Assembly: GCF_056746865.1 (NCBI RefSeq)
Contig: NZ_CM163382.1
Reading direction: 5' to 3' (one strand)
Length of the DNA: 64,000 nt
How positions within the stretch are numbered: position 1 is the stretch's first letter; the number at the start of each line of letters is the position of its first letter. The position numbers were made by a program, and so were the translations under genes. This document shows, one piece after another, positions 2,694-61,502 of the stretch. The notes beneath the pieces are model-generated. The model was not told where the DNA came from. It made no database searches and saw only the letters and a list, made by a program, of their open reading frames with translations.

Positions 2694-2711
2694 GCCTGAT
2701 GCGACGCTGGC
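2694..2711. repeat. Left half of a second REP unit (gcctgatgcgacgctggc), interrupted by IS150
   Basis: Joins with 4144..4165 (tggcgcgtcttatcaggcctac) to reconstitute canonical REP gcctgatgcgacgctggcgcgtcttatcaggcctac. Confidence 0.6.
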
Positions 2712-3466
<755 letters not shown>

Positions 3467-3570
3467 ATCAGCATACTTGTCCTTAGCCTTCTGCAGTGAC
3501 AGCTGGTAGTACAGCGTGCTTCTGGCCAGCCCTGCAGCCTTTAACAGGTCAGACTGGCAGTGTCCGCACC

Positions 3571-4092
3571 TCAGGCTCCGGATGACTTTCGTTTTTTCTC
3601 CAGCTCCTGGCGCTTTTTTTCCAGGAGATGCTCCTGCATGGCTTTCAGATATGCATTTTCTGCGCGAAGATAACGCAGCTCATTCTTCATCTCTTCCGGC
3701 GTCATGTTTGCCTCGTTTTCATGGGTATCATCAGAACGGGTCATACTTTTCTCCTTCCTGCGCCTGATAAAGGCCTCATTACCAGATTTGCGGTAGCCTT
3801 TTATCCAGTTTTTAACCGTGTTGTGGCTGGGAATGTTAAACCGGGCAGCTACCCGGGGTAGAGACTCAGAATGCCCGAGAGCATAAAGAACCACGCAAAG
3901 TTTATCTTCAGGAGAATAGCTACGCTTGTGTCTGCAATCCAGTGCCCGAGGACCGTGAAGAAGAAAAAGATTAATCCAGTGTGAGAGGCTGGTGTGAGAA
4001 AGTTGAAAGAGTTTTGCCGTAGAAATGATGCCTGCATGACCAGCCAGGTAATGATTTACAGCGGCAAGTTTTACTTCAAATGAATGTTTCAT
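3571..4092 (-). CDS. insJ: IS150 transposase OrfA (InsJ), HTH DNA-binding protein, 173 aa
   Basis: Translation MKHSFEVKLAAVNHYLAGHAGIISTAKLFQLSHTSLSHWINLF...; ATG at complement 4090..4092 (ORF track starts 3 codons earlier at GTG). Confidence 0.9.
   Translation of the reverse strand: MKHSFEVKLAAVNHYLAGHAGIISTAKLFQLSHTSLSHWINLFLLHGPRALDCRHKRSYSPEDKLCVVLYALGHSESLPRVAARFNIPSHNTVKNWIKGYRKSGNEAFIRRRKEKSMTRSDDTHENEANMTPEEMKNELRYLRAENAYLKAMQEHLLEKKRQELEKKRKSSGA
3613..3620 (-). other. Programmed -1 ribosomal frameshift slippery heptamer A-AAA-AAG of IS150
   Basis: cttttttt on + strand = AAAAAAAG on coding strand near 3' end of insJ; IS150 frameshifting is established knowledge. Confidence 0.6.
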
Positions 4093-4143
4093 AAACTGCA
4101 CCTTCAGATGTCAGATTATGTCCAACATTTGGGGTGCAGTTCA

Positions 4144-6438: not shown

Positions 6439-7647
6439 TTAAAGGGAGCCATGCGCCTCACGCAACATTTTCTGCTCTGGCTGACGAATCGTCGTAGAGA
6501 GCGCCAGTGACAGAATCAGCAGGGCGAAAATCACGTAGAAGGTCACATAGAAGCCGCCAAACAGTGAGGCGATAATCGACCCACAAATGCTGCCGATACC
6601 GAAACCGAGATAAATCACACCGTAGTTTTTCGCCAGGTTATTGAGGCCGAAGAACTCACTGACCAGTGACGGGAACACCGTGATAGTGCCGCCAAAGTTA
6701 AACGCCACGCAGGCAATCGCTGCAAAGAACGTCACTGCATTCAATGGTGCAAACAGCAGGGCCGCCATACCCACCAGCGAAATCACCTGACCAATGGTGA
6801 TAACACGGATTCGGGCGATTTTGTCAGACAGTATCCCCAGAACCAGACGACCTGAAAGGTTGGCGATGGAAATAACAGTGACTGCATTGGCTGCGGAAAC
6901 CACATCAAGGTGTGCCAGACTTTGGGCGATATCTTTCGCTACCCCAATCACGTACAGGCCGCTCATGCAGGCAGTCAGGAACATTACCGCTAACATCCAG
7001 TACTGCGGTTTACGCATCGACTCTGCCAGCGTGTAATCTTTCTCCACGATACCATTGCTGGTTTTCACTTCCTGTTTTGGTGCGTCTTTCATTAACGTTG
7101 CGCCGAAAACAATCATCACCAGCGCAATCGCTCCCCAAATCACAAATGTTTTTTCCAGACCCACCGTTTCGAGCAGCTGCGTGTCGATAAATTTGAACCC
7201 CAGGCTACCCAGACCATAAGAACCGATAGCGAACGCGGAGATCAGACCTTTACGCTCCGGGAACCACTTCACGCAGTTAGAGAGCGTCAGCAGGTAACCC
7301 GCGCCATCCGCCAGACCGACCAGCACACCGGCGCTTAACCACAGCATCATCAGGTTGTCAGAATGCGCTGTCAGGAAGAAGCCTAATCCCAGCAAAATGC
7401 CGGAAGCCATAGTGACGCGTTTAACGCCAAAACGTTCCTGTAATTTCCCCGCAACAGAAGATGAAATTGCCAGCCCCAGACTTAACAAGCCGAAAGAGAA
7501 AGCGACCTGGCTTACCGGCGCATCCAGCTTGGCAGAAAGCGCGCCGTTAAACAGGCTCCAGGTATAAACCGACCCCAGCGCAAACTGGGTAATGATAGTA
7601 CCGATGAGTGTCAACCAGCGGGTACGCTGATAATTTGAAGGTGTCAT
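6439..7647 (-). CDS. yhjX: MFS transporter YhjX (oxalate/formate antiporter-like; YpdA/YpdB-regulated)
   Basis: Translation MTPSNYQRTRWLTLIGTIITQFALGSVYTWSLF...; 12-TM MFS pattern; start at ATG 7645..7647. Confidence 0.92.
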   Translation of the reverse strand: MTPSNYQRTRWLTLIGTIITQFALGSVYTWSLFNGALSAKLDAPVSQVAFSFGLLSLGLAISSSVAGKLQERFGVKRVTMASGILLGLGFFLTAHSDNLMMLWLSAGVLVGLADGAGYLLTLSNCVKWFPERKGLISAFAIGSYGLGSLGFKFIDTQLLETVGLEKTFVIWGAIALVMIVFGATLMKDAPKQEVKTSNGIVEKDYTLAESMRKPQYWMLAVMFLTACMSGLYVIGVAKDIAQSLAHLDVVSAANAVTVISIANLSGRLVLGILSDKIARIRVITIGQVISLVGMAALLFAPLNAVTFFAAIACVAFNFGGTITVFPSLVSEFFGLNNLAKNYGVIYLGFGIGSICGSIIASLFGGFYVTFYVIFALLILSLALSTTIRQPEQKMLREAHGSL

Positions 7648-16241: not shown

Positions 16242-16301
16242 TCCCAGCCCCCTGTGTTGATTTCCAACGAGTAAGAGGCTAACCTTATGGTGTCTATGCA
16301 T
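16089..16301 (-). CDS. mokA: MokA, in-frame upstream reading frame coupled to hokA translation, 70 aa
   Basis: ATG at complement 16299..16301; frame continuous into hokA; hok/mok/sok architecture is established knowledge. Confidence 0.6.
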   Translation of the reverse strand: MHRHHKVSLLLVGNQHRGLGMPQKYRLLSLIVICFTLLFFTWMIRDSLCELHIKQESYELAAFLACKLKE

Positions 16302-16521
16302 AGAGGGGCCTCACTTTGATTTATAGTCAGGTGGGGCTTTTCTCTGTCTGCCTTTCGGTGAATACCTGAGACAAACAGTCTCAAGCACCCGCAGCTATTC
16401 TAGCTTAATAAGTTCGTTTCTTCTCCTTGATATAATCCTAAAAAAATCTCATAAAATTAATATATGAGACAATCTTTATTCAGCAGAAGATTATTAAAGG
16501 TTGCTCTATTATTTAGCGATA

Positions 16522-44855: not shown

Positions 44856-45671
44856 CTACGAATTGATATGTTCCTTGCTGTAACGTCGCTTCCACGCAGC
44901 TGGCGTTAAACCGGTGTGTTTGCGAAAAATCTGTCGGAAATAGCCAACGTCATTAAACCCGCACAACGCAGCCACTTCAGTGAGCGATCGCGCTTCGCTA
45001 ATTAACAGCTTTTCGGCTTCGCGCACTCGCTGGCGATGAATTGCTTCTGTTAACGTCAGATGAAACACCCGCCGGTAGACGCGCCCAAGATAATCGGCAT
45101 TGCAGTACAGCTCGCGGGCTAAAAGCGCCGTGGAAAGCGGGCGATGATATTGCGTGCGGATCAGTTTCTGCGCTTTCCAGGCAAGCGTGGTACCTGCGGC
45201 ATCGGCCTGTTCATCAAGACGCGCGTCACGGGTGAGTTGCTGCAAAATCAGCAGCACAATAAACTCCAGCGCCGGAGTGCGTTGATGCTTTTCCTGTTCG
45301 CTTAAGAACTGGCGAAACAGGGCCACCAGCGCCTGCCGATCGGCAACCTTTGTTTGTTGCGGCACGCTAAGATGAGTGAGCCAGCGCGGGTCGCTATCCG
45401 GCGCTTTAACCTCAAAATGCAGCCAGTAAAATTTGAGATCGGCGGGAAAATCCTCTACCCCAACATGCTGTCGGTTCGGCCAGAGTAATAAACTCTCTCC
45501 CGCATCGACCAGAAATATCCGCTCTTCTTCCTGAATCGCTAATCGACCTTTTTCGACAAAGATAATTTCCCATGACTCCAGCCGCCTTGCCGGATGCCTC
45601 CCTACGCCACGGGAAATAAATAATCCACCATTTTGCACTTTAATCGGTAACGTCATGGATAATTCGAGCAT
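44856..45671 (-). CDS. AraC-family transcriptional regulator (N-terminal cupin-type sugar-binding domain, C-terminal HTH); accessory cassette
   Basis: Translation ...FLVDAGESLLLWPNRQHVGVEDFPADLKFYWLHF...LTEVAALCGFNDVGYFRQIFRKHTGLTPAAWKRR; alternative start at 45656. Confidence 0.85.
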   Translation of the reverse strand: MLELSMTLPIKVQNGGLFISRGVGRHPARRLESWEIIFVEKGRLAIQEEERIFLVDAGESLLLWPNRQHVGVEDFPADLKFYWLHFEVKAPDSDPRWLTHLSVPQQTKVADRQALVALFRQFLSEQEKHQRTPALEFIVLLILQQLTRDARLDEQADAAGTTLAWKAQKLIRTQYHRPLSTALLARELYCNADYLGRVYRRVFHLTLTEAIHRQRVREAEKLLISEARSLTEVAALCGFNDVGYFRQIFRKHTGLTPAAWKRRYSKEHINS

Positions 45672-45896
45672 TGATATGTAATTTCCCGCTTATTCATTAA
45701 TGATTAAACACATTACCTTTTGATTATTAATCAAAAACATTAATTTCACCTGATCCAATTCACACTTTTAAATTCAGGTCGGAATCGTCACCTTTTTTTA
45801 CTCTTTTCTCGCCTTGTTGATATTCCCGTTCACGGCAGAATTAATCAGGTCATTGCAATAAAACTAAAAATTGCTCCCTATTCACGAGGAATATCT
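45672..45896. promoter_or_regulatory. AT-rich divergent promoter region of AraC-family regulator and GPH transporter operon, with near-palindromic ttgattattaatcaa elements
   Basis: Read directly; markedly lower GC than flanking core genes. Confidence 0.5.
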
Positions 45897-47297
45897 ATGA
45901 CCTCTACACCGATTACTACCGCTGATATCGCTAAAGGTAAAATTGACGATGCGTTATCTGTACGGGAAAAAATAGGCTACGGCCTGGGTGACGCAGGCGG
46001 CACCGTAATAACTTGCCTGATCATGAACTTTCTCACCTTTTTCTACACCGACGTTTTTGGCTTAACTCCGGCGCTGGTCGGCACGCTGTTTATTGCACTG
46101 CGCGTGTTTGATGCCATCTCCGACCCGGTGATGGGCGTCATTGCCGACCGGACGCAAAGTCACTGGGGGCGCTTTCGTCCGTGGCAGTTATGGATTGCCA
46201 TTCCCATCGGCATTATCGGCATCCTGACGTTCACCGTGCCAGATGCCAGCATGGGAGTAAAAATCGCCTGGGCGTTCGGCACTTACCTGCTCCTTTCAGT
46301 CGGTTATACCGCCATCAACGTGCCGTACTGCGCGCTGATCAACACCATGACCACCCGCCACAATGAAGTGATCTCCTGCCAGTCCTGGCGATTCGTTCTC
46401 TGCGGTGTAGCGGGATTTCTGGTTTCGGTAGGCTTACCGTGGATGGTGGATCTCTTCGGTCAGGGTAATGCCGCGCGCGGCTATCAACTGGGCGTCGGCG
46501 TGCTGTGCGCCATCGCTGTGGTGATGTTCCTGTGCTGTTTCTTCTGGGTTCGTGAACGGGTACCACTCTCCACAATGGGGAAATTTACCCTGCGCGAACA
46601 TCTTGCCGGGCTGCGAAACAACGACCAACTGCTGCTGATGCTGGTCATGTCTTTCCTGCTGATTAACGTCTTTAATATTCGCGGCGGTGGGTATATGTAC
46701 TTCATTACCTACGTCTTACAAGGCAGTACGGGCTACACGTCGCTGTTCTTCACTATGGTCACCTTCGCCTCCATTATCGGCTCGGTGATTGTCAGCCCGT
46801 TAACGCGACGTTTCGATACCGTCAAAATTTACTACTACACCAACCTGCTCCTCGCTGCGCTGGCGGTGTTGATGTGGTTCCTGCCCTCTGGCCCGGCTTA
46901 TCAAACGCTGTGGCTGGCGGTGATCCTCGGTAATGGCGTGATTCTTGGCTTCACATTGCCACTGCACTTCTCATTGATGGCCTTTGCCGATGACTACGGC
47001 GAGTGGAAAACCCGCGTACGTTCTTCCGGCATGAACTTCGCCTTCAATCTGTTTTTCATCAAGCTGGCCTGGGCCTCCAGCGCCGGGATCATCAGCCTGC
47101 TGTTTATTTTTGTCGCCTACCAGCCAGGCGTGGAAAACCAGACCGCCAGTTCGCTTGGCGGGATCACAGCAATGGAAACATTGCTGCCTGCGCTATTCCA
47201 CCTGCTGCTGGCGATGGCGATCCGCTTTTGCAAACTCAATAACCCTATGATGTCACGCATTGCTAGCGACCTGCGTCAGCGTCATGTACAGCCTTAA
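45897..47297 (+). CDS. Glycoside-pentoside-hexuronide (GPH) family sugar:cation symporter (MelB/YicJ-like)
   Basis: Translation [56 protein letters not shown]... 12-TM; ATG 45897 preceded by GAGGA. Confidence 0.88.
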
Positions 47298-47307
47298 GGA
47301 GCACAAG

Positions 47308-49272
47308 ATGAACATTTCGGAAGTCGATCTGCATAAACTGACGGTCAGCGATCCGTTCCTCGGTCAGTACCAACAACTGGTCCGCGATGTGGTGATTCCT
47401 TATCAGTGGGACGCCTTGAACGATCGTATCCCAGAAGCGGAACCCAGCCATGCGATTGAAAACTTTCGCATTGCCGCAGGACTGCAAGACGGTGAATTTT
47501 ACGGGATGGTGTTTCAGGACAGCGACGTCGCCAAATGGCTGGAAGCGGTAGCCTGGTCGCTGTGCCAGAAGCCGGATGCCGAACTGGAAAAAACTGCTGA
47601 CGAGGTGATTGAACTGATCGCCTCCGCCCAGTGCGAAGATGGCTATCTCAATACTTACTTTACGGTAAAAGCGCCCGAAGAACGCTGGAGCAATCTGGCG
47701 GAGTGTCATGAACTTTACTGCGCCGGTCATCTGATTGAAGCCGGAGTCGCCTTCTTCCAGGCCACGGGCAAGCGGCGCTTGCTGGAAGTGGTTTGCCGTC
47801 TGGCCGATCATATCGACAGCGTATTTGGTCCAGGTGAAAGTAAGTTACACGGTTATCCTGGTCACCCGGAAATTGAACTGGCACTAATGCGCCTGTATGA
47901 AGTGACCGAAGAGCCGCGCTACCTGGCGCTGACGAACTATTTTGTCGAACAGCGTGGTGCGCAACCGCACTATTACGACCAGGAATATGAAAAGCGCGGG
48001 CAGACCTCGCACTGGCACACCTACGGCCCGGCGTGGATGGTGAAAGATAAAGCCTACAGCCAGGCGCATTTGCCCATCGCACAGCAACAAACCGCCATCG
48101 GACATGCAGTACGCTTTGTCTACCTGATGACTGGCGTCGCACATCTGGCGCGTTTAAGTCACGATGAAAGCAAGCGTCAGGATTGCCTGCGGCTGTGGAA
48201 CAATATGGCCCAGCGTCAGTTATATATTACCGGCGGCATTGGCTCACAAAGCAGCGGTGAAGCGTTCAGCAGCGATTACGATCTGCCGAATGACACGGTA
48301 TACGCTGAAAGTTGCGCCTCCATCGGCCTGATGATGTTTGCCCGGCGAATGCTGGAAATGGAAGGCGACAGTCAATATGCCGATGTGATGGAGCGCGCGC
48401 TGTACAACACTGTGCTCGGCGGCATGGCACTGGATGGCAAACATTTCTTCTATGTGAATCCGCTGGAAGTACATCCAAAATCGCTGAAATTCAACCATAT
48501 CTACGATCACGTTAAACCGCTCCGCCAGCGTTGGTTTGGCTGCGCTTGTTGTCCTCCAAATATCGCCCGCGTACTGACCTCGATTGGTCATTATCTCTAC
48601 ACGCCGCGTGAAGATGCGTTGTATATCAACATCTACGCAGGAAACAGCATGGAAGTGCCGGTAGAAAATGGCACGTTGTGCCTGCGGGTTAGCGGGAACT
48701 ATCCGTGGCAGGAACAGGTGACAATTGCGGTTGAATCGCCCCAGCCGGTGCGTCATACGCTGGCTTTACGTCTGCCGGACTGGTGCACACAGCCGCAGAT
48801 CATATTGAATGGGGAAGAGGTCGAGCAGGATATTCGTAAAGGGTATTTGCACATTACCCGCGAATGGCAGGAGGGCGATACGCTGAATCTGACTTTGCCG
48901 ATGCCGGTACGCCGCGTTTACGGTAACCCTCTGGTGCGTCACGTCGCCGGAAAAGTGGCGATTCAGCGCGGCCCGCTGGTGTATTGCCTGGAACAGGCCG
49001 ACAACGGCGAGTCACTGCATAACCTGTGGCTGCCCGCCGATGCGCCATTTACGACCTTTGAAGGCAAGGGATTGTTCAGCCATAAGATCTTAATCCAGGC
49101 ACCGGGTTACCGGTATGAACAGAGCAATCCAGAGCAGCAACCGCTGTGGCATTACGACAGTGCGCCAGCCAAACGCCAGCCGCAAACTCTGACGTTTATC
49201 CCGTGGTTTAGCTGGGCTAACCGGGGTGAAGGCGAAATGCGGATCTGGGTGAATGAGGAAACCAGCGCATGA
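47308..49272 (+). CDS. GH127 family (DUF1680) glycoside hydrolase, putative beta-L-arabinofuranosidase
   Basis: Translation MNISEVDLHKLTVSDPFLGQYQQLV...; motifs SGEAF, YAESCAS and WFGCACCPPN in spacing matching the HypBA1 Glu/Glu-x-Cys/Cys-Cys catalytic and Zn site as recalled; ATG 47308 preceded by AAGGAG, 10 bp after transporter stop. Confidence 0.85.
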   Translation: MNISEVDLHKLTVSDPFLGQYQQLVRDVVIPYQWDALNDRIPEAEPSHAIENFRIAAGLQDGEFYGMVFQDSDVAKWLEAVAWSLCQKPDAELEKTADEVIELIASAQCEDGYLNTYFTVKAPEERWSNLAECHELYCAGHLIEAGVAFFQATGKRRLLEVVCRLADHIDSVFGPGESKLHGYPGHPEIELALMRLYEVTEEPRYLALTNYFVEQRGAQPHYYDQEYEKRGQTSHWHTYGPAWMVKDKAYSQAHLPIAQQQTAIGHAVRFVYLMTGVAHLARLSHDESKRQDCLRLWNNMAQRQLYITGGIGSQSSGEAFSSDYDLPNDTVYAESCASIGLMMFARRMLEMEGDSQYADVMERALYNTVLGGMALDGKHFFYVNPLEVHPKSLKFNHIYDHVKPLRQRWFGCACCPPNIARVLTSIGHYLYTPREDALYINIYAGNSMEVPVENGTLCLRVSGNYPWQEQVTIAVESPQPVRHTLALRLPDWCTQPQIILNGEEVEQDIRKGYLHITREWQEGDTLNLTLPMPVRRVYGNPLVRHVAGKVAIQRGPLVYCLEQADNGESLHNLWLPADAPFTTFEGKGLFSHKILIQAPGYRYEQSNPEQQPLWHYDSAPAKRQPQTLTFIPWFSWANRGEGEMRIWVNEETSA

Positions 49273-49343
49273 TGCGACGCTTAACGCGTCTTATCAGTAT
49301 CAACATATCGGTGCGGTTGCCCGCTAACCATCGAAACGCGAGA

Positions 49344-49754
49344 TTAAACGCCCGGCAATACACGCCGGGCAGCTTCTGCCAGAAACGCACTTCTGTTGGC
49401 GTAGTCTGGGTTATTGCGCACGTAGGTATCAATCTTGTTCAGTAACCTTTTCGGCATCGTAATATTGATACGTTCAGCCCGACCTTCGAACTGATTCATA
49501 TTGATATCCACCAGCAACCATTGCCCGCCAATAAAGTCCTGCGCACGCTGGACCAGATGTGTTTCCACAGAGCCTGGAAGCGGCAACTCTTCATTCATCT
49601 CGCATAAGGTTTCGAAGTGCGCGACCAGTGCACTTCGCGCATCCTGGAAAGCGTTGTCCAGCGTATCACCAGCAAAATAACAGCCTGGAACATCAGGGAA
49701 AAAACCGCTGGCGCTGCCGTCAGGATCACTGTGGATATAGGCGGGATAAAACAT
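49344..49754 (-). CDS. hicB: HicB-family antitoxin (RNase H-like N-domain plus C-terminal ribbon-helix-helix)
   Basis: Translation MFYPAYIHSDPDGSASGFFPDVPGCYFAGDTLDNAFQDARSALVAHFE...NITMPKRLLNKIDTYVRNNPDYANRSAFLAEAARRVL. Confidence 0.8.
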   Translation of the reverse strand: MFYPAYIHSDPDGSASGFFPDVPGCYFAGDTLDNAFQDARSALVAHFETLCEMNEELPLPGSVETHLVQRAQDFIGGQWLLVDINMNQFEGRAERINITMPKRLLNKIDTYVRNNPDYANRSAFLAEAARRVLPGV

Positions 49755-49770
49755 ATTGCCTCCTGAAATT

Positions 49771-49956
49771 TTAAAATGTTAAACCAGCCTGACGCCCAAT
49801 TTGCGCCAGCGTACCGGGCTTAATATCTTTTTTAGGGTGCGGAACCGTCACCAGACCCGGATGAACAGGGTGGCGGAACTGATGATGACTGCCACGGGTT
49901 CGAATATGTTCCCAGCCATGCTGCTTCAGGATGGCGATCACGTCTGCACTTTTCAC
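49771..49956 (-). CDS. hicA: HicA-family toxin (YcfA-like mRNA interferase), 61 aa
   Basis: Translation MKSADVIAILKQHGWEHIRTRGSHHQFRHPVHPGLVTVPHPKKDIKPGTLAQIGRQAGLTF; 16 bp upstream of hicB on same strand. Confidence 0.8.
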   Translation of the reverse strand: MKSADVIAILKQHGWEHIRTRGSHHQFRHPVHPGLVTVPHPKKDIKPGTLAQIGRQAGLTF

Positions 49957-50182
49957 ATCCCTGCCCTTCCATGATTATACACACGATACACACACAATTA
50001 GCGATAACAATCACGATAGCGCGATTTATATGGGCCGTCAGGGGGATAAAGTTGACTCAGGAATGCCACTCGGAAGAAGAATAACGGTGTGCAGTAATTG
50101 GTAGAAAATATGCGAGGAGACTCGTAATTAAGTTCAATCAATATTCAGTCATTCAAGACGTAGACATTTGAATTGATAAAAC

Positions 50183-50202
50183 GCGCAAACGTCGCATCAG
50201 GC
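50183..50202. repeat. REP-like element (gcgcaaacgtcgcatcaggc) immediately downstream of aldB
   Basis: Matches REP consensus core. Confidence 0.5.
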
Positions 50203-50233
50203 AATGAATACCCAATGCGACCAGCTTCTTATA

Positions 50234-51772
50234 TCAGAACAGCCCCAACGGTTTATCCGAGTAGCTCACCAGCAGGCACTTGGTTTGCTGGTAATGCTCA
50301 AGCATCATCTTATGGGTTTCGCGTCCGATGCCCGACTGTTTGTAGCCGCCAAACGCCGCATGTGCCGGGTAAGCGTGATAACAGTTGGTCCACACGCGTC
50401 CAGCCTGAATGCCGCGCCCCATCTTATAGGCCAGATTACCGTTGCGGCTCCAGACACCCGCGCCCAGGCCATATTGTGTGTCGTTCGCCAGCTCCAGCGC
50501 TTCTTCCATCGTTTTGAAGGTGGTCACCGCCAGCACCGGACCAAAAATTTCTTCCTGGAACACGCGCATATTATTCTGACCAAACAGAATCGTCGGTTCG
50601 AGGTAGTAGCCGTCTTTCAGTTCTCCTTCCAGCAGCTTGCGCCGCCCGCCGGTGAGCACGTCTGCGCCCTCTTTTTTACCAATATCAATGTAGTTGAGGA
50701 TGGTTTCCAGTTGCCCGTGAGAAACCTGCGCGCCCATTTGCGTCACGCTGTCGAGCGGGTTACCGCTACGAATACTTTCAACACGGCGGATGGCGCGTTC
50801 CATGAAGCGTTCGTAGATAGACTCCTGCACTAAAGCACGGCTTGGACAGGTGCAAACTTCGCCCTGGTTAAAGGCAAACAGTGCAAAGCCTTCCAGCGCT
50901 TTATCAAAAAAGGCATCTTCTTCATCCATCACGTCAGCAAAGAAGATATTTGGCGATTTGCCGCCCAGCTCCAGCGTCACCGGAATAATGTTTTGCGTGG
51001 CGTATTGCATAATTTGTTGACCCACTTCCGTTGAGCCGGTAAACGCCACTTTGGCGATGCGTTTCGAGGTCGCCAGATATTCGCCAATTTCCCCACCTGC
51101 ACCGTTGACCACGTTCACCACGCCCGGCGGCAGTAAATCACCGACGATTTCCATTAGCAGCAGTACAGAAAGCGGGGTAAGACGTGCGGGTTTCAGCACC
51201 ACACAGTTGCCCGCCGCCAGCGCGGGAGCCATTTTCCAGCTCGCCATCAGCAGCGGGAAGTTCCACGGAATAATCTGCCCCACCACGCCTAACGGTTCGT
51301 GGAAGTGATAAGCCACAGTTTCGCTATCCACTTCACTAATACCGCCTTCCTGCGCCCGAATACACGAGGCAAAATAGCGGAAATGGTCAATCGCCAGCGG
51401 TACATCAGCAGCACTGGTTTCGCGAATGGGTTTGCCGTTATCCCAGGTTTCAGCCGTCGCTAACAGTTCAAGGTTTTGTTCCATTCGATCGGCAATCTTA
51501 AACAGAATCGCCGCGCGATCCTGCACCGAGGTATGCGCCCATTTATCTTTCACTTTGTGCGCAGCATCCAGCGCCAGATCGATGTCTCGTTTGCCCGAAG
51601 ACGCCACTTCGCACAGCCGCTGCCCGGTCACCGGCGTCAGGTTCTGGTAATACTCGCCGTCGGCAGGGGCTACCCATTCGCCGCCAATAAAGTTGTCGTA
51701 GCGGGCTTTTAACTTGAGGGGGAAACCATACTCGCCGGGCTTAATCTGTGCTGAAGGGGGATTATTGGTCAT
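50234..51772 (-). CDS. aldB: Aldehyde dehydrogenase B, 512 aa
   Basis: Translation [48 protein letters not shown]...; start at ATG 51770..51772. Confidence 0.96.
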
Positions 51773-53313: not shown

Positions 53314-55158
53314 TTATTTTTCCGGAAATAATAATGCGTCGCGCAATAAATGATCATTTCCCCGACGACGCGTAAAACCAATGCGGTCAAAATATTCCAG
53401 AATTTGAATTGCCAGTTTTCGACCAACACCTAAACGATCGCGGAAATCCGCCGCGCAGGTTGAACCACATTCCTGATCGAGATCGCGGATCATATTGGCA
53501 AACTCGACAATCCGATCGTTACGGTAATAACGATCTTTAACGATCGCGGTAATTATCCCCTGCTGCGCCGCCTGGCGTAGCGTCAGGCGCATTGCCTGCT
53601 CGTCGGTTCCCGTCTCTTTTGCCAGGTCACGCACCCACCACGGTTCGTCACCAAACAGCGGCTCTGCTTTTTGCCAGATGACCTGCTGCTCTTCGCTGAA
53701 GCCCGCTTTATGATCCGGCAGATGCAGCCAACCGTGATGACTGAGGATGTCGCCGCTTTCGCGCATCTTTTCAATCAGCAACAGTACCAGCGCTTCATCT
53801 TCCATTGGCAACGCCATACGTCGCAGACGTTCGCGCCCAGGACCAGGTTCATCGCGATGTTGCTCATGATAAGTCGCTAATGTGTCGAGAATTTTCCGCT
53901 GCCAGCGGGCGGCAACCGGCGCATTCAACAAGCTATAACCAGCCTGAATATAGCCAGGCTGTTGCAGCAGTTCGCGCATCCCTTCGCCGTTGAGCTGCCG
54001 TGCCCAGGCGAAATCCGCAAGGTTAACCGCTCCGCGTTCCAGATGAACAGATAACGCATCGGCATCGCTCTGCGCCCGTGCAAGAGACGCCAGCCATTGC
54101 AGATATTCCGGCTTACGCTTACCGCGACGCGGCGGGTTAAGCATCACCACACGCGCCCCCGCCAGCGTGTTGCGGGCCGAGATATCGCGCAGCACCAGGC
54201 GATCGTTATCCGCCAGCCATAGCGGCGTGTCGAACACCAGCTCGGCAAGGTTATCTTCCAGCAGCGAAACGCGTCCCGTGACGTGGCTGGCGGCGTGGTG
54301 AATATGCAGCGGCTGCCACTGGGTCAGCGGTGTATGGGTTTGAAGCTCGACAATCACCCGTGTGAAAGGCTCCGGCGGCGCATCGGCAAGCAGCCAGTCA
54401 CCACGGTGAATCTGCTCTTTTTCCGCATCACCCGCGATGTTAAGCGCGATACGCTGACCGGCATGGGCAGTTTCTGTTGGCTGATTTTGCGCATGCAGCG
54501 CACGCACGCGCATCGGTTTATTTACACCAGTCAGCCATAGTGAATCGCCTACCTTCACTTCCCCGCTTAACGCCGTACCGGTGACGACCAGCCCGGCACC
54601 TTTTACGGTAAATGCACGGTCGATCGCGAGGCGGAAACTATGTTGGCTGGCGTGTTCACGTTCTGGTAACTGAAGCAAATGCTCGCGCAGGGCATCAATT
54701 CCCCGACCTTCGGTTGCTGCGGTGATAAACAGTTTTGCCTCAGCAAAACCGTATTCCCGCAGCACCTCCTTTACCTGGCGTTCAACCTCATCAACACGCG
54801 CTTCGTCCACGCGATCGGCTTTGGTCAGCGCCACTGTCAGCATCGGGTTACCGGTCAGCTGCAAAATCGCCAGATGCTCACGGGTCTGTGCCATCACGCC
54901 GTCATCGCACGCCACCACCAATAGCGCGTGATCGATACCACCAACGCCAGCCAGCATGTTGGAAAGAAACTTTTCATGACCGGGTACGTCGATAAAACCA
55001 GGCACACGGCCATCCGGCTGCGGCCAGTAGGCATAGCCGAGATCGATGGTCATGCCGCGCTTTTTTTCTTCCGGCAGACGGTCGGCATTTACGCCAGTAA
55101 TCGCCTGCAATAAGGTTGTTTTGCCGTGGTCAACGTGTCCGGCAGTCGCAATAATCAT
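53314..55158 (-). CDS. selB: Selenocysteine-specific translation elongation factor SelB
   Basis: Translation [45 protein letters not shown]...; 614 aa. Confidence 0.97.
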
Positions 55159-56546
55159 TTCAACAACATCTCCAAAAACCGTTGCTCATCTTCAAGGCAG
55201 CGTAAATCCAGCCACAATCGTCCGTCATAAATACGACCAATCACCGGCACTGGCAATTCACGCCAGCGGGCGGCTAATGACTCAAGGTGGCTACCGCGTC
55301 CATCATGGGGTGTAAACGTTAATGCGGCGCTCGGCAGGCGATCAACCGGCAGCGAACCACTGCCAATCTGCGAAAGACATGGCATAACCTGTACCGCAAA
55401 CTCCGCGCCGTAATGTGCGGCAAGGGGAGCCTGTAAACGTTGTGCCTGGATTTGAATGACCTCTGCGCTGCGGGTAAGCAGGCGCAGGGTCGGTAATTTT
55501 TCACTCAGAGCTTCAGGGTGTAAATAAAGACGCACCGTGGCTTCCAGCGCCGCGAGGGTCATTTTATCCGCGCGTAATGCACGCTTCAGCGGGTGGCTTT
55601 GCAGGCGGGCGATCATCTCTTTTTTACCAACGATAATCCCTGCCTGCGGCCCGCCTAACAACTTGTCGCCGGAGAAACTCACCAGACTGACGCCCGCCGC
55701 AATCAACTCCTGCGGCATTGGCTCTTTCGGCAAACCGTACTGGCTAAGATCGACCAGCGAGCCACTGCCTAAATCAGTCACCACGGGAATATCCAGTTCT
55801 TTGCCGAGCGCCACCAGTTCCGCTTCATCTATCGCTTTGGTGAATCCCTGAATGCTGTAGTTACTGGTATGTACTTTCATCAACAGTGCGGTATTTTCAT
55901 TCACCGCCTGACGATAATCATTCGCGTGCGTGCGGTTGGTGGTCCCTACTTCGTGTAGGGTGCAGCCTGCCTGACGCATGACATCAGGAATACGAAACGC
56001 GCCGCCAATCTCCACCAGTTCGCCGCGAGAAACCACCACCTCTTTCCCGCTAGCAGTGGCCGCCAACATCAATAACACCGCCGCCGCATTGTTATTAACG
56101 ATACAGGCATCTTCCGCTCCCGTAATGCGGCACAGCAGCTGCGCCAGCGCCCGATCGCGATGTCCGCGTCCGGCGTCGTCCAGATCGTACTCGAGGGTCA
56201 CTGGCGAACGCATAGCCTGCGCAACGGCTTCCACTGCGGCTTCCGCCTGTAAAGCTCGCCCAAGATTGGTATGCAGCACGGTTCCCGTCAGGTTGATCAC
56301 CGGACGCAGCGCGCTCTGCGCCTCCTTTGTCAGTCGGGCATCGACTTCTTGCGCCCAGTTTTCACACCATGCGGGCAGCGTCTGGCTGTCACGAATCACT
56401 TCTCGCGCTTCGTCAAGCATCTGACGCAGCAATTCCACCACGCGGGTGTGACCATAAGTATCACGCAAAGAAAGGAAGGAGCTATCGCGCAATAAGCGAT
56501 CAATAGCCGGAAGTTGACTATAGAGGGAACGCGTTTCGGTTGTCAT
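55155..56546 (-). CDS. selA: L-seryl-tRNA(Sec) selenium transferase SelA
   Basis: Translation [49 protein letters not shown]...; 463 aa; 4-bp overlap with selB start. Confidence 0.97.
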
Positions 56547-56643: not shown

Positions 56644-57252
56644 TCAAGCCTTTGGCGGTTCGGTGCGAGCAAAACTTTCGCGGCTAAACAGGTTTTCGAC
56701 CAGTTTGACTAAGTGTGGGCGGTCGACACACCAGCCTGGCGCAACGCGGCGGAAATTGAGATATCCGACGGCACAGGCAATGGCGATAGTCGCCAGATTG
56801 ACCGTATCGGTTTTGAGCGTGCCATCGACCAGATATCCTTCCAGCACATCCAGACTGCGGTTGATTTTCTCCCGCTGGCGTAACAATTCATCTTCAGACT
56901 GCTGCGCCGCCGGACGCGCCTGTTCACGCACCGATACCAGCCCGGCATCCATAATGCCATCCGCCAGCGCCTCAATTTTGCGCACCCGCAACGACTCCAG
57001 CGGATCGCGCGGCAACATCGCCGGAGCGACATTCATTAATTCAATATATTCAGCGATGATCGGCGAATCAAACCAACATTCGCCCTCTTCGGTCACCAGC
57101 ACCGGCACTTTCCCTAACGGGTTAAATTGCGCCACGCCGTTGTCCGCGTTATAGGGCAGTTCATTAATAAATTCGAAAGTTATGCCCTTTTCTAACAACA
57201 GAATAGAAAGTTTGCGTACAAACGGGCTGGTGTAGCTACCGACGAGTTTCAT
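56644..57252 (-). CDS. yibF: Glutathione S-transferase-like protein YibF
   Basis: Translation [53 protein letters not shown]... Confidence 0.93.
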
Positions 57253-57322
57253 GCCGAGTCCTTTGTGCGAGGAAAAATATCAGTATGGCTCAGGCTCACG
57301 CAAAACACAGGTGATATAAGTC

Positions 57323-58459
57323 TCAATGATCCAAATAAAGATAATGCATCCAGCTGGTCATTCTTAGCAGCACTTTCCGCATCACCGAAACATGGCTGAA
57401 ATGGTCGGAGTAAACCGCCACCTGGGCGTAGATGCCGTCGGGTAAGGCATCGATATCATCGTTAGGGTCCAGTTCAATGGTTCCCAGCACACCGTCCGTG
57501 CCGGGCACGACCGTTAATGATTGCAATACCCCCTGCGCCTGATAAGAACCGCCTGGCACGACAGGTAAAATACTGGTCAGTTTGCCGTGGAACACCTGCC
57601 CAGGTAGCGCGTTAAACACCACTTCCGCATCATCGCCGGGTTTCAGACGTAACAGCGAGTTTTGCCGAAATTGGGCGACAATTTGCCGTTTTTGCTCGGG
57701 GATGAAAACCATCACCGGACGCAACGGCAAGGCAGCTGCGTATGTACCTGGGCGGATCAGTACCTGAGTAACGTAGCCATTGCTCGGCGCGCGAATGACA
57801 GTCTGCTCAAGGTTATATTTTGCTTCAGTAAGTTGCGCTCTTAAGCTCACAATCTGCGATTGCTCGCCGTTAACCATACTATCGAGCTGGCTCTGGATCT
57901 GCGCCTGCTCCGCCACCGAGCCTTTCACCAGCGCATCCTGCGCGAGGAAATTTTGCCGCGCATCGTCGATGTCACGTTCCGAGAACGGATTCACCGCCGC
58001 CTGGCTGCCTTTCAGATAACGTTGATAATTTTTAAACAGACGGTCGCGCTCCGCTGAAACCTGGGTGGTGTTGGCCTGCGCTTCAGTGAGCTGCGCGCGC
58101 AGCGTCTTTATATTATGCGTCGCCGTCATCAGGTCAGCCTGAAGTCTGTCAACTCGCGCCTGGTAACGAACCGGGTCGAGTTTAAAAAGCACCTCGCCCT
58201 TTTGAATAAGCTGATTATTTTTGTCGGTGACTTCAGTAACAATTCCCGTCACCTGTGGCGTGATGGGGATCGCTATCACTGCCTTTTGCGCGGTAAAAGT
58301 GTAAGGGTGGTTGTAGTTCATCAACAAAATCAAACCACTCACCAGAAACACGCCTCCCAGCGCCGCCGTCGCCAGCGTCCACTGATTCACCGGAATGCGG
58401 AAGATTTTAAAGACCGCCCACGCCAGCGCCACGTAAGTTAAAACAATCAATAGATCCAT
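57323..58459 (-). CDS. yibH: HlyD-family membrane fusion-type inner membrane protein YibH
   Basis: Translation [52 protein letters not shown]...; 378 aa. Confidence 0.9.
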
Positions 58460-58461
58460 AT

Positions 58462-58824
58462 TTAGATCTCCGGGAACGTGGAATAGTCAGTCTTTTTCTC
58501 GGCGGCGAGTTGGTGCTCCAGCCGGGAAATTCGGTCAGAAAGTGCGGCGATTTCCGGGTCAGTCGCTTTCTCTTGCGACGCAACATGTGACTGCATGCCC
58601 CAGCCGCGCTCCGGTTGATAGAGCGTCGCCCAGATCCACAGGAACGGCCAGATAACATGTAGAGTAAACAGGCTCACCCAGCCCGCCGTATGAATAGCGT
58701 CGGCATGGGGATGGTTGCGCTTTTTGGCAATCAGATAAGGGATGTCATGTATCGCGATGATTCCATAAAAAATCACCAGAAAGACGAAGATCAGCACTCC
58801 CAACGCGAAATAGTTTAGAAACAT
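58462..58824 (-). CDS. yibI: Small inner membrane protein YibI (DUF3302), 120 aa
   Basis: Translation [53 protein letters not shown]... Confidence 0.9.

Positions 58825-61274: not shown

Positions 61275-61502
<228 letters not shown>

Follow-up and report, generated by a model that had tools for sequence, protein, structure and literature searches.

The yibF-yibH interval of an Escherichia coli genome as a probable unoccupied allele of the RhsA locus

Introduction

When yibF directly adjoins yibH in an E. coli chromosome, at the place where K-12 carries its RhsA island, has the island been lost, or was the site never occupied? We address this question for a 64,000-nucleotide stretch of contig NZ_CM163382.1 (RefSeq assembly GCF_056746865.1), here called the window, in which the first-pass annotation had recognized the empty site of an Rhs polymorphic-toxin island.

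That the yibF-yibH locus is polymorphic, being either empty or occupied by RhsA, is not a new observation and has been known since 1990. In that year, Feulner and colleagues reportedly described rhsA as an element of 8,249 bp in whose place an Rhs-free strain has 32 bp of unrelated sequence; at rhsC, the Rhs-free strain is said to have 10 bp instead of about 9.6 kb. The same locus appears as rhs 'position 10' in the 20-strain survey of Jackson et al. 2009 (BMC Genomics 10:584, PMC2935791), where it is variably present among E. coli and Shigella, was not found in E. albertii and was inferred to have arisen inside E. coli, after the split from the 'pathogenic' group.

Results

Geometry of the site and its flanking genes

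The spacing that had been proposed between the yibF start codon and the yibH stop codon, 70 bp, is exact (57253-57322, from the list of open reading frames and the sequence). The yibF start codon occupies 57250-57252 and reads CAT on the plus strand, and the yibH stop codon occupies 57323-57325 and reads TCA on the same strand. The site and its surroundings are laid out as follows.

53314-55158, minus strand: selB
55155-56546, minus strand: selA
56644..57252, minus strand: yibF, 202 aa, glutathione S-transferase-like; left flank of the site
57253..57289, minus strand: yibF-proximal block of 37 bp, GCCATACTGATATTTTTCCTCGCACAAAGGACTCGGC when read in the sense of yibF, with no difference from K-12 as far as the junction
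57290..57321: 32-bp segment (TCAGGCTCACGCAAAACACAGGTGATATAAGT on the plus strand), at the position of the K-12 8,249-bp RhsA element
57322: right junction, one base past the yibH stop codon, placed by blastn and base-by-base comparison
57323..58459, minus strand: yibH, 378 aa, HlyD-family membrane-fusion protein; right flank of the site
58462..58824, minus strand: yibI (DUF3302), upstream partner of yibH, in the same orientation as yibH, yibF, selA and selB
Beyond yibI, plus strand: mtlA, mtlD and mtlR

The adjacent yibF/yibH pair is thus bordered by selA-selB on one side and by yibI-mtlADR on the other. The lengths of the yibF and yibH reading frames agree with the K-12 annotation, and YibF of the window has 100% protein identity to K-12 YibF by tblastn. 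An identical arrangement is found in strain MS14387, an ST69 O17:H18 blood isolate (PMC10024524), where 2.3 kb at the site are 100% identical to the window and the RefSeq annotation gives the same genes. Of additional note, the empty-site genome of strain BEC1-S17-ESBL-09 is otherwise identical, and there yibF is split by the IS4-like element ISVsa5.

Junctions against K-12 and absence of Rhs sequences

The annotation of K-12 MG1655 places rhsA-yibA-yibJ-yibG-yibS-yibW-yibV-yibU between yibF and yibH. K-12 yibF is thus not next to yibH, and the first-pass annotation was correct in placing rhsA there together with yibA, yibJ and yibG. By blastn and by base-by-base comparison, homology on the left stops at window position 57289, which corresponds to position 6993 of the K-12 locus (L001), and on the right it restarts at 57322, which corresponds to L001 15243. 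The junctions therefore fall at 57289/57290 and 57321/57322, and the window has 32 bp (57290-57321) where K-12 has 8,249 bp (L001 6994-15242). Consistent with an empty site, this is a clean absence: the alignment contains neither a target duplication nor an Rhs remnant, and no piece of Rhs lies within the 70 bp between the genes.

The claim that no Rhs core reading frame is present anywhere in the window also holds. When K-12 RhsA, YibA, YibJ, YibG and YibV were compared with the whole window by tblastn, the best E value was 0.13, and the 8,249-bp K-12 island gave a 16-bp chance match only by blastn. No large YD/RHS-repeat reading frame with an RHS core motif, a toxin tip and an immunity gene occurs anywhere in the window. 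As a positive control for Rhs detection, the insert at the same site in Citrobacter youngae was recovered with RHS_repeat at 8e-56.

At the junctions of the K-12 island, a target duplication and terminal direct or inverted repeats were looked for and are absent. The island ends share one 10-bp direct and one 10-bp inverted match, neither of them at a junction; the direct 10-mer, TCCAAATAAA, lies 45 bp inside one island end and 9 bp outside the other. We considered a site-specific (attB-type) integrative island and rejected it, since the K-12 island annotation includes no integrase and the K-12 allele has no junction-spanning direct repeat.

Allele frequencies in E. coli

We searched 5,426 complete E. 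coli genomes, 5,425 of which had a match to the window query. Their alleles at the site were counted as follows.

Empty allele, contiguous across the site: 1,523/5,425 (about 28%)
K-12-type left junction: 3,746 genomes (about 69%)
K-12-type right junction: 3,714 genomes
A different 10.4-kb protease/fimbrial island (ST1193 type): 143/5,426 (about 2.6%)

The three alleles together account for about 5,412 of the 5,426 genomes. The earlier reading as an empty Rhs site is supported, but the site is more than a matter of presence or absence, as the roughly 2.6% of complete genomes with a different island show. In the sampled genomes that are not contiguous across the site, nearly every match starts at 57322 (query position 723), with a single row starting at query position 726. 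Where the K-12 island is lacking, the K-12 junction queries align over positions 1-194 and 294-501 and no further. That these genomes share their junction bases argues for one insertion event, the product of which was then inherited or exchanged.

These counts also bear on whether the junction is an assembly artefact, in which a collapsed Rhs core repeat falsely joins yibF to yibH. Multi-copy Rhs cores often break short-read assemblies, and an E. albertii contig that ends in yibH is an example. However, 1,523 complete genomes are contiguous at the same junction, one of them 100% identical over 2.3 kb, and a collapse would not yield 32 bp that are conserved in other species. We find an artefact hardly credible.

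The spacer in other species

For comparison outside E. coli, we assembled 80 loci encoding YibH relatives, with one genome per species, and located in them the homologues of YibI, YibH, YibF, SelA, MtlA and RhsA. E. albertii was left out of the scoring, as its contig (L052) ends inside yibH. In 56 loci, yibF lies at most 200 bp from yibH, and all of these gaps measure roughly 60-120 bp. Wherever yibF is near yibH, the order is mtlA / yibI-yibH-yibF-selA; this applies to Escherichia whittamii, Escherichia sp. E1V33, Citrobacter, Kluyvera, Enterobacter, Lelliottia, Leclercia, Raoultella, the Klebsiella oxytoca group, Trabulsiella and others. In E. whittamii and Escherichia sp. E1V33, the yibH-yibF gap is exactly 70 bp.

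In the spacer alignment, E. whittamii and Escherichia sp. E1V33 have near-identical versions of the 32 bp, as do the representatives of two more E. coli-like species, and the Citrobacter spacers are clearly homologous to them (...TCACCTGCC-TTT...CCTGAGCCATACTGATATTTTT). Because of this conservation, the 32 bp are identified by sequence comparison as the orthologous, native yibH-yibF spacer, and they are neither deletion filler nor a scar. The alternative would be an excision or deletion of the island in this lineage, with the 32 bp as what filled or remained in the gap, and the classical description of the 32 bp as 'unrelated', which is attributed to Feulner et al. 1990, would on its own be in keeping with it. 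Such a scar is not expected to be orthologous to the island-free spacers of E. whittamii, Escherichia sp. E1V33 and Citrobacter, or to show the same bases in about 1,500 genomes. Nor do the 32 bp resemble the island: their best ungapped match to the K-12 island is 18/32, which is at chance level, and a 10-mer common to both, GGTGATATAA, is not significant alone. We therefore regard a deletion scar as extremely improbable.

Given the tight yibI-yibH-yibF-selA linkage across the Enterobacteriaceae sampled, the uninterrupted order in the window is most likely the ancestral one, a conclusion that Jackson et al. 2009 (PMC2935791) also reached for this locus, and we infer that this lineage never carried the island. 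An empty yibF-yibH site is an ordinary one, common in E. coli and ancestral in the family.

A less direct history would lead to the same sequence. If an island-bearing ancestor had recombined with an empty-site donor, the 32-bp spacer would have been restored exactly, and the outcome would look identical to ancestral absence. E. coli recombines often, and some genomes with an interrupted yibF-yibH site share yibH-yibI with the window at 99.4% identity, indicating similar backgrounds for both alleles. The closest match to the window, MS14387, moreover belongs to ST69, a phylogroup D lineage outside the group classically described as being without clade I Rhs expansions. Against this, nothing positive points to a secondary loss: the divergence of the flanks from K-12 is the usual 2-3% and shows no local sign of mosaicism, the spacer agrees with those of other Escherichia species, and Jackson et al. 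2009 (PMC2935791) put the origin of the locus inside E. coli. Secondary loss is thus conceivable but unlikely, and we favor ancestral absence.

Anatomy of the 70-bp spacer

The 37-bp block next to yibF contains a Shine-Dalgarno-like AAAGGA and a conserved CATACT, the latter (CATAAT in some genera) standing beside yibF in almost every genus aligned. The CATACT/AAAGGA block stays on the yibF side in every island-bearing locus that we have seen, and it is predicted to hold the -10 element and the ribosome-binding site of yibF.

The 32-bp segment includes, on the minus strand, ATCACCTGTGTTTT, which corresponds to the 3' half of a putative decayed yibH terminator. A complete hairpin (GGCAGG...CCTGCC) followed by a T-run (TTTTTT) is found after yibH in four of the loci, at about 11137-11180 in L011 and at about 11137-11185 in L039, L046 and L065. 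Escherichia and most Citrobacter keep the 3' half only. The full hairpin resembles an intrinsic terminator, and its reduction to one half suggests that the lineage of the window has seen the yibH terminator decay. A consensus scan of the 70-bp gap found no promoter and no terminator, the RNA fold of the spacer is no better than that of shuffled sequences (z = 0.58), and an Rfam search of the gap matched no family; the promoter and terminator roles suggested here are deduced from conservation alone. With no terminator between them, yibH and yibF may share a transcript in the empty allele.

Other islands in the same spacer

Besides RhsA, the following inserts were found between yibH and yibF.

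E. coli ST1193 strain MDBZ1340, L084 1573-12001: island of 10.4 kb with 36% GC
Citrobacter youngae ATCC 29220, L020 2101-10593: Rhs element in the K-12 orientation
Pseudocitrobacter faecalis, L071 11135-17098: PAAR-VgrG-LysM module
Citrobacter sp. MGH106, L009 11135-18322, and Klebsiella spallanzanii, L055 4193-12030: sugar island

Every insert seen sits downstream of the yibH stop codon and short of the conserved CATACT block, and in several genera the yibH-yibF spacer has repeatedly served as an island site. The ST1193 island encodes a 1226-aa autotransporter protease of the S6 family and an HTH protein, together with chaperone-usher fimbrial genes. The Rhs gene of C. youngae ATCC 29220 has DUF6531, RHS repeats, an RHS core and an M91-like tip, and an orphan tip is also present. 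The island of Citrobacter sp. MGH106 and K. spallanzanii contains PTS-EIIBC, sulfatase, aldose-epimerase and RpiR genes. In Escherichia sp. MOD1-EC7003, the 298 bp beside yibH are shared with the beginning of the K-12 island, after which the sequence diverges into a muramidase gene and an IS fragment.

We also asked whether these islands are related to that of K-12. Blastn detects no homology between the K-12 and ST1193 islands; the two have similar G-rich bases beside the yibH stop codon, in a stretch too short to assess. A shared origin for the Rhs islands of K-12 and C. youngae was rejected as well, given that homology is confined to the Rhs core (about 70%) and the yibF-proximal block and that the insertion points differ; from their sequences, the two are probably independent.

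A possible foreign copy of the spacer

At the position of the 32 bp, K-12 has CTGCCCTTTTTCCCATCACCAGG on the yibF sense strand (L001 6994-7025), directly before CCATACT. Of the K-12 left end, only the innermost ~30 bp (CTGCCCTTTTTCCCATC...CCATACT) align convincingly by position with the spacers of other genera, and CTGCCCTTTTTCCCATCACCAGG itself aligns by position with the 3' half of the terminator and the T-run, for example in L046 (CTGCCTTTTTTCCATCGCTGATC-CATAAT) and L020. Instead of being unrelated DNA, this K-12 sequence may be a spacer copy of xenologous origin. When the 73 bp unique to the K-12 left end were scored as a decayed yibH 3' end plus spacer, the best score over all targets was reached by 45/300 shuffles and is not significant, and the mean over targets was reached by 7/300 shuffles, a marginal result. 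On the ST1193 island, the spacer next to yibF is likewise a version of the whole 70-bp spacer that has diverged and is of foreign type. The apparent presence of diverged, donor-type spacers in the K-12 and ST1193 islands suggests that islands move together with their flanks by homologous recombination, in a post hoc comparison of short sequence.

Taken further, the site could be a cross-genus hotspot at which unrelated cargo is swapped through recombination in the flanks. The K-12 island would then have brought a foreign spacer with it, and the 32/8,249 boundary would be a recombination end-point. We hold this idea tentatively, as a possibility that falls somewhat short of being probable. Under such a scheme, cargo would be exchanged between lineages, and probably between species, rather than integrated site-specifically, and the '32 bp vs 8,249 bp' boundary would mark the end of a recombination tract and not the original insertion point.

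Discussion

The analysis establishes the coordinates and junctions of the site, the lack of Rhs, the orthologous nature of the spacer and how frequent each allele is. We consider it very probable that the window represents the E. coli RhsA locus in its unoccupied form, with its native spacer, into which the island was inserted in other lineages. We propose the following scheme. In the unoccupied state, yibI-yibH-yibF-selA-selB run uninterrupted on the minus strand, and the spacer would be made up of a yibH terminator that has half decayed and, after it, the conserved block upstream of yibF. An AT-rich composite of 8,249 bp would have been inserted one base after the yibH stop codon in K-12 and in about 69% of complete E. 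coli genomes; this composite consists of the rhsA core and its toxin tip, of yibA, and of orphan tips accompanied by downstream genes. Its insertion would have replaced 32 bp of the spacer without target duplication or terminal repeats, which points to a single illegitimate insertion or import. The RhsA allele may later have spread or been lost through homologous recombination in the flanks.

This allele closely resembles the Rhs-free ('Rhs0') rhsA allele of Feulner et al. 1990, with the same flanks and the same 8,249 and 32 bp, in a comparison by reported size; like the window, that allele has no Rhs core homology. The difference lies in how the 32 bp are understood: they were reportedly called unrelated by Feulner et al. 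1990, whereas here they are the ancestral spacer. Position 10 of Jackson et al. 2009 (PMC2935791) is the same locus with the same flanks, surveyed there in 20 strains and here in 5,426 complete genomes. The empty site of rhsC is reportedly also a case of an AT-rich composite exchanged for a short unique sequence without target duplication or integrase, at a different chromosomal site.

As for its significance, the strain is without the RhsA toxin and its downstream genes at the yibF-yibH locus, and it is without one large Rhs repeat of the kind that drives chromosomal rearrangements in K-12. The empty allele can serve as a lineage marker and is in itself of little consequence. It also provides a natural reference for defining the ends of islands at yibF-yibH in other strains. 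The varied and repeated occupancy of a single spacer across genera offers a modest lead on how islands that lack an integrase move.

Other features of the window

The remainder of the window is collinear with K-12 apart from three insertions, none of which is Rhs. An IS3-family insertion sequence, absent from K-12, lies between dppA and proK at 2710-4143, and its reading frames have HTH_Tnp_1/HTH_28 and rve domains. The hokA/sokA region (16274-16312) is uninterrupted here; K-12 has IS150 (1.4 kb) there. At 44856-49272, the window has intact genes for an AraC-family regulator, an MFS_2 sugar transporter and a GH127 beta-L-arabinofuranosidase at a place where only the ysaC/ysaD pseudogene remnants are found in K-12. 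The region 49171-50260 comprises only about 1.1 kb with a HicB-like antitoxin gene (49344-49754), as against about 3.9 kb with yiaT, yiaU, yiaV and yiaW in K-12. The yiaV-yiaW pair, which is annotated like yibH-yibI as a membrane-fusion protein and its neighboring gene, seems to be missing from the window, in a comparison with K-12 sequence on either side of 3753000-3754999. Finally, the mtlA-mtlD intergenic region (61285-61500) contains REP-like palindromic repeats of the GCCGGATGCGGCGT type, which are spanned by a spurious 443-aa reading frame call.
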